Below are positions 823-63,300 of a stretch of 64,000 nt of DNA, piece by piece. The notes below the pieces were generated by a model that did no database searches, was not told where the DNA came from, and saw nothing but the letters and a program-made list of their open reading frames with translations. The stretch lies in assembly GCA_949840345.1 (NCBI GenBank), contig CATKWX010000008.1, forward strand, positions 1,801 through 65,800, written 5' to 3'. The number at the start of each line of letters is the position of its first letter. Position 1 is the stretch's first letter. The position numbers and the translations under genes are program-made. Source of the DNA: an uncultured Eubacteriales bacterium (GTDB taxonomy: Bacteria; Bacillota; Clostridia; TANB77; CAG-508).

Positions 823-858
823 AGGGAACGACCTTCTAAAGTCGTTCCCTATAAGTTA
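823..858. terminator. Perfect GC-rich palindrome TAGGGAACGAC-N8-GTCGTTCCCTA between the convergent dockerin gene and leuS. Probable bidirectional terminator and a member of the TAGGG...CCC palindromic repeat family.
   Basis: 11 bp perfect inverted repeat seen directly; the same arms recur at 4467, 39785, 47233, 52071 and 53378. Confidence 0.6.
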
Positions 859-3264
859 TTTCACTACAATATTATAAATTTTATTTTTTACATATATTTC
901 TTTTACAATTGTTTTTCCTTCTAATAGTGTTGCTACTTCTTTTTTTACTATTTCTTTTACAGCTGATTCTTCTGCGTCTAATGGAATTTTTACTGTTGCT
1001 TTTACTTTTCCATTGAATTGAACAGGAATTTCTATTTCATCATCAATTGTTTTTGCTTCATCATATTTTGGCCAAGTAGAATCTGATATTGTATGACCTG
1101 TGTTTAGTAATTCATATAATTCCTCTGTTATATGTGGTGCAAATGGATTTAGCAATTCTAAGAAAGTTTTAAATTCTGCTTTGTTTATTCTTTTTAGCTT
1201 ATAAAATTCATTAATCATTGTCATAAATGTTGCAATAGAAGTATTAAACTTCATTTCCTCAATATCGCTAGAAACTTTTTTAATAGCCTTATGCATCATT
1301 TTTTCAAATTCAGGAGAGTAAGAATCTCCATCTACTAATATTTCTTGTAGGTTCCAAACTCTTTCTAGGAATTTATAGCATCCTCTAATACTATCCATAG
1401 ACCAAGGTGCTGATTGATCAAATGGTCCTATAAACATTTCATAAACTCTAAAGGTATCTGCACCGAATTCATTAACTATATCGTCTGGATTTACAACATT
1501 ACCCCTAGATTTAGACATCTTTTCTCCATTACTTCCTAAAATCATACCATGTGATGTACGTTTTTGATAAGGTTCTTTTGTTGGAACTACACCTATATCG
1601 TATAAAAATTTATGCCAAAATCTTGAATATAGTAAGTGTAGAGTAGTGTGCTCCATACCACCGTTATACCAATCTACAGGAGACCAATATTCTAGTGCTT
1701 CCTTTGAAGCTAATGCGTTATCATTATGTGGGTCCATATAACGTAAGAAATACCAAGAAGATCCAGCCCATTGAGGCATTGTATCTGTTTCTCTTTTAGC
1801 ACTTCCACCACAGTGTGGACAAGTTGTGTTAATCCAATCTGTTTGTTTTGCTAAAGGAGATTCTCCATTTTCACCTGGTTCAAAGTCTTTTATATCTGGT
1901 AAAACAAGAGGTAATTCTTTTTCATCTAATGACACCCAACCACAATTTTGGCAATATACCATTGGAATTGGTTCACCCCAGTATCTTTGGCGAGAAAATA
2001 CCCAGTCACGAAGTTTGTAGTTTACTTTTCTTTTTGCAATTCCTTTTTCTTCTAGATAGTTTATACAAGTTTTAATAGCTTCTTTTACTCCTAATCCATT
2101 TAAGAATCCAGAATTAATCATTGTTCCAGAATATACATCTGTATGAGGTTTTTCCTGTACATTTTCGCCACCTGATACAACTTCTATTATTGGTAAATTA
2201 AATTTCTTTGCAAAATCCCAGTCTCTATCGTCATGGGCAGGAACAGCCATAATAGCACCAGTTCCATATGTAATTAATACATAATCTGAAATCCAAATAG
2301 GAATTTCTTTTCCTGTTAATGGATTTATTGCCGTTATTCCTTTTAATTCTACACCAGTTTTTTCTTTAGAAAGTTCAGCTCTTTCAAAATCTGATTTTAA
2401 TTTTGCTTGATTTTGATATTCCTTTACGTCATTTAAATTAGTAATTTTATCTTCAAATTTTTGAATCATAGGATGCTCTGGTGCGATAACCATATAAGTT
2501 GCACCAAATAAAGTGTCAGGTCTTGTTGTATATACAGTAAGTTCCTCTCCTTCAATTCCTGCAAGTTTAAACTTAACTTCAGCACCTTCGCTTCTACCAA
2601 TCCAATTTTTTTGTTGTAATTTAATTTTTTCTAAGAAATCTATATCGTCTAAATCGTTTATAAGTCTTTCAGCATATTCTGTAATTTTTAGCATCCATTG
2701 ACTTTTTTCCTTTTGAACAACAGGACTTCCGCATCTTTCGCAAACACCATTAACAACTTCTTCGTTTGCTAAACCTACTTTGCAACCTGTACAATAGTTT
2801 ATAGGCATAGTTGTTTTATATGCTAAACCGTGTTTAAATAATTGAATAAAAATCCATTGAGTCCATTTATAATAATTTGGGTCTGTTGTATTTATTTCAC
2901 GAGACCAGTCAAAAGAAAATCCTAGAGCCTTTAATTGCTCTCTAAAATGATCTACATTTTGTTTTGTAATTATACTTGGATGAACTTTATTTTTTATAGC
3001 GTAGTTTTCAGCTGGAAGACCGAAAGCATCAAATCCAATAGGGTATAAAACGTTAAATCCTTCTAATCTTTTCTTTCTTGCAATGATATCAAGTGCTGTA
3101 TAGCTACGAGGATGACCAACGTGGAGTCCTTGTCCTGATGGATATGGAAATTCTATTAATCCATACCACTTCTTCATAGAATAATCATTTTTTGCATTAA
3201 AAGTTCCTTCTTTTTCCCATTTTTGTTGCCATTTTTTTTCTATCTCTTTGAAATTATAAGACAT
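856..3264 (-). CDS. leuS: Leucyl-tRNA synthetase (class I aaRS; HVGH and KMSKS motifs).
   Basis: 802 aa ORF with 'HVGHPRSY' and 'KMSKSRGN' motifs and the LeuS editing-domain architecture. Confidence 0.95.
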
Positions 3265-3420
3265 AAGGCATCCTCCTTGTTTTAAAAAATAATGTAAACA
3301 TTATACTACAAAAATTAAATATAGTCTAGGGAAATGGGCAAATTAATTATTCTTTTAAAAAACATATTGCAAATACTTTAGGAGTGCAGGCTAACGCCCT
3401 AATGTACATATCTAATCAAA

Positions 3421-3462
3421 AAGAGATAGTAATTCGCAGTTACTATCTCTTTTTTTTGCTAT
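3421..3462 (-). terminator. Stem-loop with flanking A/T runs in the leuS 5' leader; a possible attenuator.
   Basis: AAAAAGAGATAGTAA-loop-TTACTATCTCTTTTTTTT, about 160 nt upstream of the leuS ATG on the minus strand. A T-box identity was not confirmed. Confidence 0.35.
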
Positions 3463-3608
3463 ATGACTTAACGCAGATTTAATCAAAGTCATTTCTAATC
3501 TAAGTATATTGTACTATTTTAAATTTAATTTGTCAATATGTTTACCTAAAAATTCCCTTGCAAATTGAAAATATATCATATATAATTTTGCTAAATGAGG
3601 TAGAGATT

Positions 3609-62110: not shown

Positions 62111-62782
62111 ATGAAAAAAAAGGTTTCTATAATAATTGCTATAGTATTAATTATACTTGTAATTTTTTTATTTTTTATAAAAAATAATTATAATTTTTTT
62201 AAATTTGGAAATAATATGAGTAACAAATCAGCTGATGAAATAAAAAATTATATTTTAAATATTGATTCATTTAGTGCAGAGGCATCGGTTACAATAACAA
62301 GTAATAAAACTACAAATACATATACATTTAATCAAAAAATTAAAGGTAATAAGTGCGTTCAGGAACTGCTAGAGCCAGAAAATATTGCAGGATTAAAAAT
62401 ATTGTATGATGGAGTTAATATAAAAATAGAAAATACAAAAATAGGAATATCTAAATTATATGAAAACTATAACTGTATAACCAGTAATTCATTGTGGATA
62501 AATACATTTATCAATGATTATAAAAATGAAACAAATGAAAAAACAATGTATGAAGAAAATAACAAGATTATATTAGAAGTAAAAGTAAAAAATGAAAATA
62601 TATACAATGCAAATAAAAAGCTATATATAGATAAATTGACGGGCAAACCTGTAAAAATGGAAGTACAAGATATTACACAAAACTTAAAGGTTTACATATT
62701 ATATAATAAGGTTGAAATAAATACCTTGCAGGAAGAAAATATAATAGCCTTTAAATTAAATGGTGAAAACGAAGTAATATAA
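62111..62782 (+). CDS. Hypothetical membrane-anchored (N-terminal TM) protein.
   Basis: ORF; hydrophobic N-terminus. Confidence 0.4.
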   Translation: MKKKVSIIIAIVLIILVIFLFFIKNNYNFFKFGNNMSNKSADEIKNYILNIDSFSAEASVTITSNKTTNTYTFNQKIKGNKCVQELLEPENIAGLKILYDGVNIKIENTKIGISKLYENYNCITSNSLWINTFINDYKNETNEKTMYEENNKIILEVKVKNENIYNANKKLYIDKLTGKPVKMEVQDITQNLKVYILYNKVEINTLQEENIIAFKLNGENEVI

Positions 62783-62851
62783 AAATAATAAAAAGTCTTT
62801 CTGCGAAATTTGAACTAATATTTAATATATAAAATATACAAATTAGCAGGA

Positions 62852-63211
62852 GTGAATAATATGGTAGTAAAAAGAGGCGATATGTTTTATGCAGATTTAA
62901 GTCCTGTAATAGGTTCTGAACAGGGCGGAATAAGACCAGTATTAATAATACAAAATGATACAGGAAATAAGTATAGCCCAACTGTTATAGCGGCAGCTAT
63001 AACATCTCAAATGGGGAAAAATAAATTGCCAACACATATTGAATTGGATTCAGACGAATTTGGCTTAAAATCTGATTCAGTAGTATTAGCAGAACAAATA
63101 AGAACAATAGATAAAAGCAGACTTAAAGAAAAGATAGGACATATTGACGATTTAAACACAATGAATAGGATAAACAATGCATTAGGAGTAAGCTTCGGAT
63201 TAGGAGAATAG
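62852..63211 (+). CDS. mazF: MazF/PemK-family mRNA interferase toxin (EndoA-like).
   Basis: '[31 protein letters not shown]' is a strong MazF/EndoA match. Confidence 0.85.
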
Positions 63212-63222
63212 ACGGTAGATTG

Positions 63223-63300
63223 TAGGGGCGATTTTAATCGCCCGTGCTACGAAGCAAGTGCCGAACGAAGAATGAATAATGAATAGTGAATAATTATTTG
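63223..63300 (+). repeat. E-like palindromic element (GTAGGGGCGATTTTAATCGCCCG) plus GAATGAATAATGAATAGTGAATAAT repeats.
   Basis: Family member. Confidence 0.5.

Follow-up and report, generated by a model that had tools for sequence, protein, structure and literature searches.

GTAG-tagged REP families in BIME-like mosaics, and a probable subclass 2.4 RAYT, in uncultured CAG:452-like gut Clostridia

Here, we analyse the GC-rich hairpins that are scattered through a 64-kb stretch of contig CATKWX010000008.1 (assembly GCA_949840345.1, an uncultured Eubacteriales bacterium; the whole stretch is referred to as the window). We suggest, with high confidence, that these hairpins are repetitive extragenic palindromes (REPs) of several families that carry a GTAG tag, are arranged in mosaics resembling bacterial interspersed mosaic elements (BIMEs), and are handled by a REP-associated tyrosine transposase (RAYT) of subclass 2.4 in uncultured gut Clostridia similar to Clostridium sp. 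CAG:452. Four observations carry this reading: the anatomy of the elements, a RAYT gene between inverted REPs of the long subtype D, turnover of the elements among relatives, and a strand asymmetry of the mispairs in their stems. The hallmark of GTAG-type REPs is an imperfect GC-rich palindrome with the tetranucleotide GTAG at its 5' foot (PMC3733652, PMC3333891), and a RAYT gene between two inverted REPs is the defining association of such systems (PMC2817692). The subclass of this REP-RAYT system has been described before, while its host group is new as far as the literature searched shows: in that literature, the journal coverage of which is incomplete, we found no description of REP families in Clostridia, and on REP/RAYT in Clostridia or Firmicutes there were only papers on rep-PCR typing and a single mention of Group 1 RAYTs in Clostridia.

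The window is AT-rich (24-34% G+C), its GC skew is positive along most of its length and its genes are mostly on the + strand. TGTAGGG occurs 23 times, each time on the + strand, which is about nine-fold over expectation (2.64, standard deviation 1.65, maximum 7 in 100 dinucleotide-preserving shuffles); the shorter GTAGGG is found 27 times on the + and once on the - strand. Nearly every TGTAGGG directly precedes a GC-rich inverted repeat that starts with GGG, ends with CCC and is often followed by GCA. A hairpin scan of the window that was blind to the tag (stem of at least 7 bp with at least 6 G-C pairs) returned 17 GC-rich hairpins, 12 of which have GTAG at the 5' foot (CTAC at the 3' foot for one inverted copy), while the tag variants GCAG, ATAG and GTAT are present at three others. 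An element consists of (T)GTAG followed at once by an imperfect GC-rich hairpin with a GGG...CCC foot, i.e. the first three pairs are G-C. Folded as DNA, subtypes A, B, C and E give -6.1, -10.7 (z -3.3), -8.4 and -11.5 kcal/mol (z -6.5), respectively, with z-scores ranging from -2.5 to -6.5. By curation with a looser tag we arrive at about 35 mostly extragenic elements, degenerate copies and relics included (Table 1); the roughly 28 copies counted in an earlier, sequence-only reading of this DNA were a fair estimate.

About ten of these elements are preceded by a conserved head of ~20 nt. When one genome per species was scanned with a pattern that combines head and tag (ATATTGCAAACNNTGTAGGG), 66 loci were obtained. 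About 57 of them come from some twenty metagenome-assembled genomes (MAGs) of uncultured gut Clostridia (human, goat, rabbit) and from Clostridium sp. CAG:452; the remaining ones appear to be chance matches, each being a single one in a genome that is unrelated and richer in GC. In 538 kb of DNA from this clade, the tag is present on 165 of 216 GC-rich hairpins, and 355 occurrences of GTAGGG were counted in 604 kb from clade loci, which were themselves chosen by the biased head-plus-tag pattern. The five subtypes A-E that the sequence-only reading had distinguished are all real and coexist with further families, each subtype in the window recurring in several other clade genomes. The lack of subtype conservation beyond the window, which that reading had named as a refutation, is thus not what we observe. 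A histidine-kinase protein of the window is identical in the MAG assemblies GCA_948740395.1, GCA_949095705.1 and GCA_948901475.1, as is (100%) the DNA flanking its gene.

The sequence-only reading had proposed that a cognate RAYT be looked for elsewhere in the genome, and such a gene is present between inverted subtype-D elements, an arrangement known as a REPtron, in the species of the window and in six related sources. With E. coli TnpA_REP (a sequence that matches PDB 4ER8 exactly) as query against all open reading frames (ORFs) of the loci retrieved, two matches were obtained, both in the clade: L050_44_493 (E 9e-10) and L013_6079_6459. The former codes for 150 aa with the motifs PNHIH and WQRNYYEH...YIINNP, and lies between a + strand D element and a complete inverted D element. 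Its close homologues from a database search (L070, L092, L094, L095 and L100) all lie between two inverted D elements; the proteins of L070 and L092 are intact (152 and 185 aa), and at L094, where protein identity has fallen to 54%, the D flanks have co-varied. Locus L080 (GCA_948901475.1), in an assembly that also holds the kinase gene of the window, belongs to the window's own species (Table 1). Here, the RAYT ORF (P0023) has a ~147-bp in-frame deletion that takes out the WQ, the catalytic Tyr and the YIxNNP region; this 100-aa allele is found on 14 contigs. Judged by its sequence, the D-family enzyme of this species is dead. Because the only RAYT found in the species lacks the catalytic tyrosine, the D family is probably frozen there, and the D copies at 56214 and 63297, which have lost their tag, show decay that fits a frozen family. 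In a sister species, the RAYT gene at L100 is intact. Because L100 is syntenic with L080 (87-88% nucleotide identity), the gene has been inherited in place, as is the case for domesticated RAYTs.

A second RAYT lineage (L013, L096, L097; P0241-P0258) contains the peptides '..VGADPCVRP..' and '..GGQRRPPLQ..', which are what a B- or E-like REP gives when translated, once in direct and once in inverted orientation. These genes (L013 6079-6459; L096 501-1013; L097 501-1013) stay open, with 170 aa, despite their internal REPs, and at L097 one REP is positioned just upstream of the gene with its inverted partner inside it. Thus, these bacteria have at least two RAYT lineages, one tied to the long D elements and one to short families. 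For the short families, a RAYT partner was found in relatives only and for B- and E-like REPs.

The best model for the clade protein is NCBIfam NF047646 (REP_Tyr_transpos) with 57.7 bits (E 1e-15) compared with 18.6 bits for IS200, and a profile of 24 clade proteins finds 4ER8 first in the PDB (E 1.2e-13), with ISDra2 TnpA at E 9e-4. In the alignment of this profile with 4ER8, the HUH histidines H80 and H82 are invariant, and so are Y135, aligned to Y115, and N139, aligned to N119. The motifs NH[IFV]H, WQ and YIxNNP and the lack of a C-terminal domain (P0001-P0022, P0241-P0311) agree with the table for subclass 2.4 (PMC6006769), whereas E. coli TnpA_REP, with DHLH, WE and YIHYNP in place of NHIH, WQ and YIxNNP, belongs to a different subclass. 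Other traits of subclass 2.4 are also present, i.e. a hairpin foot of three G-C pairs, REPs of the long and of the double-foot kind, and in-frame REPs in the RAYT between the HuH and Tyr motifs (L013, L096, L097; P0241-P0258). Thus, by motifs and features rather than by a tree, the clade RAYT matches a predicted single-domain HUH/Tyr (Y1) nuclease of TnpA_REP subclass 2.4 (Quentin 2018, PMC6006769), which is the same as RAYT Group 4 (Bertels 2017, PMC5581495). This group has been described mainly from Cyanobacteria and Bacteroidetes and is scattered in other phyla (PMC6006769, PMC5581495). The clade differs from these descriptions in its host, uncultured gut Clostridia, and in its conserved head and its GTGAA/AT-hairpin modules, which are not described there.

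REPs turn over among close relatives. The topoisomerase gene of the window (3558-5663) contains two in-frame A-type copies. Among 120 homologues, those at least 88% identical have REP-coded inserts of various subtypes at both of these loop sites (VGNDALVVP, VGATIDCP, VGAFIARP, VGADESRRSP, or two in tandem), while others at 85-92% identity and all those at or below 78% are free of inserts. The spacer upstream of the desulfoferrodoxin gene is occupied in the window by a 190-nt mosaic of decayed A, head, B, GTGAA linker and D, in the same-species locus L089 (~98% identity) by a different mosaic, and in the sister species L088 and L086 by none. Where the window has a head and a decayed REP (3336-3403), L089 has an adenylosuccinate lyase gene and a small ORF (2914-4796), i.e. 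the two differ by a ~1.9-kb indel at a REP site. Moreover, an A element (53369-53395) takes the place of the loop of a D element (53341-53413), a nesting that the sequence-only reading had correctly placed at ~53342-53416. The empty sites that it had proposed seeking in close relatives are present in the topoisomerase loops and in intergenic spacers. As to the mobile elements it had likened the hairpins to, the comparison with REPs and BIMEs is borne out; the one with miniature inverted-repeat transposable elements (MITEs) is not, as neither terminal inverted repeats (TIRs) nor flanking or target-site duplications were found on the GTAG hairpins of the window.

Further in-frame copies are present in ORF 39152-40711 (three) and, as three relics, in the C-terminal extension of MinE. 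All of these further copies read the tag as GTA GGG, i.e. Val-Gly; one alternative frame would make the TAG of the tag a stop codon. In L088, the tag of the REP orthologous to that at 5708..5735 provides the TAG stop codon of the topoisomerase gene, and GTAG tags that give TAG stop codons have been reported for other GTAG REPs (PMC3733652). Copies that land in frame in surface loops would seem to persist as peptide inserts of the V-G-x-x-x-x-V-P type.

The ~130-residue extension of MinE (58693-59358) consists of three 78-nt tandem repeats, each of which holds a decayed REP (DVGTLTSNSEE, DVEVSIACPEE and DVETSIARPEE). A giant gene of the GH94 or cyclic-glucan-phosphorylase type (38002-46228) appears to be broken up into five or more successive ORFs; profile positions 195-292, which belong to the catalytic domain, coincide with the gap 45346-45601, and one fragment contains three in-frame REPs. 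Either decay into a pseudogene or errors of assembly may lie behind the breaks.

The stems carry a strand signature. In 98 distinct tagged hairpins of the clade, there are 29 G·T mispairs and one A·C mispair on the tagged strand (binomial p 6e-8, a value that overstates independence because the copies are related). Because G·T mispairs greatly outnumber A·C mispairs, the hairpin appears to be maintained as a single strand on the tagged strand, and the asymmetry fits a top-strand single-stranded DNA (ssDNA) substrate and a sense RNA alike. Between co-directional genes of the clade, 68 tagged hairpins are in sense and 20 in antisense orientation. This would be the direction expected if the tagged strand enters the lagging-strand template; insertion into this template has been shown for IS608 and ISDra2 (cited in PMC3333891).

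E. coli TnpA_REP requires GTAG and ssDNA, and cleaves at C|T (PMC3333891). By analogy with this enzyme and with IS608, the clade RAYT would bind the tagged strand as an ssDNA hairpin with GTAG serving as the guide, and would cut close by and rejoin the DNA with the result that REPs are excised, copied and inserted. Insertion would take place where DNA is single-stranded, for instance in the lagging-strand template, and this would account for the presence of the tag on the leading-strand sequence and for the co-orientation of nearly all copies with genes.

Alternatively, the elements could primarily be host RNA structures, i.e. sense hairpins that stabilise, process or terminate transcripts, and their spread could be incidental or ancient. 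We regard this as possible, although on balance unlikely. It would explain why sense copies make up 68 of the 88 tagged hairpins that lie between genes of the same direction and why the sense strand has G·T rather than A·C mispairs, but a top-strand ssDNA substrate predicts the latter equally well, and 20 of the 88 are in the opposite orientation. Many copies are located within operons, between cistrons of the por genes or between the response-regulator (RR) and histidine-kinase (HK) genes, directly upstream of a ribosome-binding site and beside a conserved AT hairpin; however, others are in frame within ORFs, and divergent, tandem and convergent spacers are filled about equally (16%, 20% and 17%, respectively). 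For the same reasons, the location in 5' untranslated regions that the sequence-only reading had given for most copies is not demonstrable. The persistence of the elements despite a dead RAYT in the species of the window speaks for a host function, whereas the absence of Rfam matches and the restriction of a T tract to a single copy speak against it. At the gathering score, Rfam 15 gave zero matches in the whole window; with E up to 1 in 46.9-63.6 kb, the sole match was FourU (E 0.21), which we judge to be chance, and a search for tRNA and tmRNA found none. The hairpin sequence varies among families and GTAG alone is fixed, for which a DNA tag read by a protein is a better fit than one RNA family. 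A host RNA role is compatible with the REP reading as a secondary role. Classical REPs in E. coli affect mRNA decay, and by analogy the sense hairpins in intercistronic RNA (por delta/alpha/beta, RR/HK) may affect mRNA stability or decay.

Several points weigh against the elements being REPs handled by this RAYT. There is no RAYT in the 64-kb window by either the E. coli query or the clade profile, the only one found in the species of the window is without its catalytic Tyr region, making current mobility there doubtful, and none of the loci searched contained a cognate RAYT for subtypes A and C. With 57.7 and 61.2 bits, the clade RAYTs are below the equivalog cut-off of 80 of NF047646. Subtype D folds weakly as DNA (z -0.5) and has one compensatory pair among 15 distinct sequences, which are too alike for covariation. 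Counts from the related loci carry a bias, as these loci were picked via the head-plus-tag pattern. Transcription instead of replication could be behind the orientation bias, and gene runs in the minority orientation, with 4 REPs in 14 tandem spacers, are too few to part the two. Finally, the D copies that flank the RAYT gene have no counterpart of the head, and our model leaves the head unexplained.

This head (ATATTGCAAAC-NN-TGTAG; consensus aaaAAAtATATTGCAAACgTTGTAGGGG over 67 instances from many species) is conserved across species and hairpin subtypes. The sequence-only reading had assigned it to all subtypes in general; it precedes only the ~10 elements mentioned above, each of them the first element of a mosaic. 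Besides hairpins and head, the BIME-like mosaics comprise a CTTCGAAG linker and GTGAA-rich repeats (AGTGAATAATGAATAGTGAAGAGTAC) followed by an AT hairpin (CAAAAATCTTCGATTTTTGA; z -4.0 for its DNA fold). The modules hold a fixed order and polarity, and the head is often between an inverted and a direct REP, as BIME linker motifs are. The GTGAA and AT-hairpin module is directly upstream of five genes (Table 1), is present in close relatives too and has no Rfam match. We also considered the head as a mobile canonical sigma-70 promoter and rejected this idea: a consensus scan calls no promoter at any head, and the -35 match upstream of the 67 heads equals the control (2.58 vs 2.59 of 6).

The head could be a left-end or target module. 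A second alternative builds on this and takes the whole mosaic as the mobile unit, i.e. a non-autonomous element of the IS200/IS605 type similar to the palindrome-associated transposable elements (PATEs), in which the head and first hairpin form the left end, where cleavage or target recognition would take place, and the last hairpin forms the right end. The conservation of the head in 67 instances before the first hairpin only, whatever its subtype, and the fixed order and polarity of the modules are in line with this idea, and a head that ends in TGTAG without a hairpin is found at 60814-60840. Also, the left cleavage site of IS608 is ~19 nt 5' of the hairpin foot (PMC3333891). However, mosaic composition varies by site, no two mosaics in the window are copies of one unit, headless singletons are the majority, the D copies flanking the RAYT gene are without a head, and no clean-ended insertion the size of a mosaic was seen between the relatives compared. 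We therefore consider this alternative improbable. A related speculation, which we find rather doubtful, is that the RAYT system moves polar cassettes (head, hairpin, GTGAA repeats and the AT hairpin adjacent to the ribosome-binding site) into the lagging-strand template, and in this way seeds genes and operon junctions with sense leader structures that the host keeps after the death of the RAYT. If so, the REP system would have a defined polarity and a benefit linked to expression, in contrast to the BIME/REPIN populations of Proteobacteria, which are symmetric.

That the elements are ordinary intrinsic terminators or chance GC-rich palindromes, alike through composition, is hardly credible: 51616-51638 fits the terminator pattern and the double-foot copies 820-853 and 35381-35411 are between convergent genes, but an origin of this kind for the whole family is refuted by the nine-fold enrichment of TGTAGGG over shuffles, the families common to many clade genomes and the D family flanking the RAYT gene, and most copies have no T tract and several are in ORFs. 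Similarly, a GC hairpin with a T tract at a gene end, the pattern by which we evaluated the elements as intrinsic terminators, fits 51616-51638 only. The sequence-only reading had named three terminators (823-858, 35377, 51613), of which the last is upheld, being the only copy with a T tract.

The GTAG-tagged REPs of the clade share with E. coli REPs and BIMEs (PMC3333891; 4ER8) the 5' GTAG at the foot of an imperfect palindrome, several REP types per genome, mosaics with conserved linkers, a transposase gene between inverted REPs, and alignable HUH and Tyr/Asn residues. They differ in that the host is an AT-rich member of the Clostridia, hairpins are shorter (~20-26 nt) save for the 50-nt long type, copies in the window are mostly single or direct (27 + to 1 -) instead of inverted pairs, and divergent spacers are occupied as often as others. 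In the clade as a whole, about half of the elements are singletons, and neighbouring pairs are direct in 17 and inverted in 24 cases. In some species, the inverted pairs include doublets similar to Pseudomonas REPINs; for instance, the arms of those in the RGIG1848 loci of sister species are ~20 nt apart and near reverse complements. By contrast, the window has two inverted pairs only, with arms of different subtypes and no long hairpin possible. The inverted copies of these pairs are a clear one at 34116-34140 and a second at 59452-59480. The former is the one listed at 34118 in the sequence-only reading, while its supposed minus-strand copy at ~3385 is a degenerate + copy behind a head.

Rickettsia palindromic elements (RPEs) have, to our knowledge, neither a GTAG tag nor a RAYT partner. 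As for RPEs and REPs in genes (Di Nocera 2013, PMC3733652), insertions here are in frame and in loops, conserved proteins stay intact, replication and repair proteins are hit (here a topoisomerase), and the tag is sometimes the TAG stop; unlike the RPEs of 100-150 bp, the inserts are 8-10 codons long and in one frame (GTA GGG, Val-Gly). With IS200/IS605 elements and PATEs, the system has in common a Y1 HUH enzyme, subterminal hairpins with a 5' guide tetranucleotide, strand specificity, and the absence of terminal inverted repeats and target duplications (PMC3333891). However, the clade protein matches RAYT models far better than IS200 models, there is no TnpB, and the RAYT gene is at a conserved chromosomal site in sister species (L080 vs L100), similar to domesticated RAYTs.

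REP-RAYT systems have been studied almost only in Proteobacteria, while the system reported here is dense, comprises multiple families and resides in small AT-rich genomes of uncultured gut Clostridia. It offers natural contrasts between an intact RAYT in sister species and a catalytically dead allele in the species of the window, between filled and empty sites at 85-98% identity, and in the form of in-frame inserts in essential proteins. These contrasts could serve to date REP activity and to ask whether host use lets REPs outlive their enzyme. For annotation, the elements account for the odd inserts of 8-10 residues of the type 'VG....VP' and for the long GC-rich spacers in these MAGs. Points that might attract specialists are the polarity, the head and the way in which several REP families have persisted alongside a RAYT that is dead.

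Table 1. Elements and associated modules, in window coordinates except for the last row
Position	Strand	Feature	Remark
820..853	.	subtype A 'double-foot' palindrome, TATAGGGAACGAC...GTCGTTCCCTATA	convergent genes on either side; arms of 14 bp, perfectly paired; both ends with tag variant ATAG/CTAT
3358..3404	+	head (AAAAACATATTGCAAAT), then degenerate REP (TTTAGGAGTGCAGGCTAACGCCCTAA)	gene here instead in same-species relative L089
4466..4492	+	subtype A in topoisomerase ORF	in-frame VGNETNVVP; site empty in orthologues P0129, P0132, P0134-P0140
5127..5152	+	subtype A, tag GCAG, in topoisomerase ORF	read as AGNDAPVVP
5708..5735	+	C-like REP, TGTAG-GGGTCGGTCAAGACCGACCC-GCA	GTGAA-rich linker before it (5656-5707)
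7522..7546	+	degenerate subtype A (TTACGAACGACCAATGGTTGTCGCG)	
7550..7596	+	head, then subtype B (GTAG-GGGCGGACGTCCCTGTCCGCCC-GCA)	DNA fold -10.7 kcal/mol, z -3.3
7630..7681	+	subtype D, long REP	part of 7522-7681 mosaic
31847..31892	+	head, then A-variant (GGAGCGGCGCCCTCGCCGTTCC)	
31935..31958	+	subtype E (GGGGCGCATGATTGCGCCCC)	fold -11.5 kcal/mol, z -6.5
34116..34140	-	inverted REP (GTAGGGGCGAGCATTGCTCGTCCG on minus strand)	tag-inward pair with next element (34141..34190), head between
34141..34190	+	head, then subtype C (GGGGTCGGCGTCCTTAGGCGACCC-GCA)	
35381..35411	.	B-like double-foot copy, TGTATGGGCGGGC...GTCCGCCCATA	between convergent genes
39784..39810	+	subtype A in ORF	read as VGNETSVVP
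40408..40437	+	subtype B, tag CGTAG, in ORF	read as VGADVPVRP
40567..40593	+	subtype C in ORF	read as VGVASLGDP
47130..47174	+	head, then C-like REP	between response-regulator and histidine-kinase genes
47233..47258	+	subtype A	
47274..47326	+	subtype D	
51294..51344	+	head, then degenerate subtype A	
51612..51637	+	REP, tag CGTAG (GGGCATGCCGTTGGCGTGCCC)	sole terminator-like copy (pattern at 51616-51638)
52070..52095	+	subtype A	
52113..52139	+	REP, CGTAG-GGGCGAGCATTGCTCGTCC-GCA	
53322..53413	+	head, then subtype D with nested A (53369-53395) in loop	between por delta and alpha genes
54669..54721	+	subtype D	between por alpha and beta genes
56214..56266	+	subtype D, decayed tag AATAT	
59050..59236	+	three REP relics	in 78-nt tandem repeats of MinE C-terminal extension
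59452..59480	-	inverted B-like REP (…GGCCCGCCACTAC)	
59481..59526	+	head, then REP GGGGTCAATGCTCACATTGACCC	
60814..60840	+	'empty' head	ends in TGTAG, no hairpin behind
61840..61863	+	small AT-rich double-foot-like copy, TGTAGGGGAAAGAATTTCCTAT	orthologous L050 copy is TGTAGGGAATGAATTTCCTACA
62005..62043	+	head variant (AATATTGCATAT), then subtype E	
63221..63243	+	REP GGGGCGATTTTAATCGCCC	subtype common to many related loci
63297..63340	+	strongly decayed subtype D	
31970-31989, 47213-47232, 51393-51412, 53432-53455, 62076-62095		GTGAA + AT-hairpin module	directly before ribosome-binding site, five genes
L080: 1432-1484; 1501-1803; 1806-1858		RAYT locus: D element; ORF; inverted D	

A stretch of 24 kb (7681-31866) is free of REPs. 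It includes a type I-B CRISPR-Cas island (14562-15594, 17376-25245 and 25436-27293) with cas6, cas8b-like, cas7, cas5, cas3, cas4, cas1 and cas2 genes flanked by two arrays, one with 16 and the other with ~28 repeats of 30 nt. In the sister species L086, gcpE directly follows the desulfoferrodoxin gene and the CRISPR-Cas island is not present there.

A separate MITE-like family of ~170 nt with 21-bp TIRs (ATACAATAAAAGAATAAAATT / AATTTTATTCCTTTATTGTAT) is represented at 619-785, 11153-11320 and 34031-34115. The third of these copies is cut off where an inverted REP starts; in the same-species L089, a different sequence occupies the position of the first.

The beta gene of the 2-oxoacid:ferredoxin oxidoreductase (54747-55701) is present as two overlapping ORFs in different frames (54747-55163 and 55072-55701), reflecting either a frameshift or a sequencing error. 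Finally, near-identical terminator-like blocks (AACTCAC..TTTT..GTGAGTTGTTTTTTTCTTGCTTTTTAATGC) at 11686-11745 and 12527-12585 follow two small genes, which adjoin the gene for a KilA-N domain protein (11903-12511).

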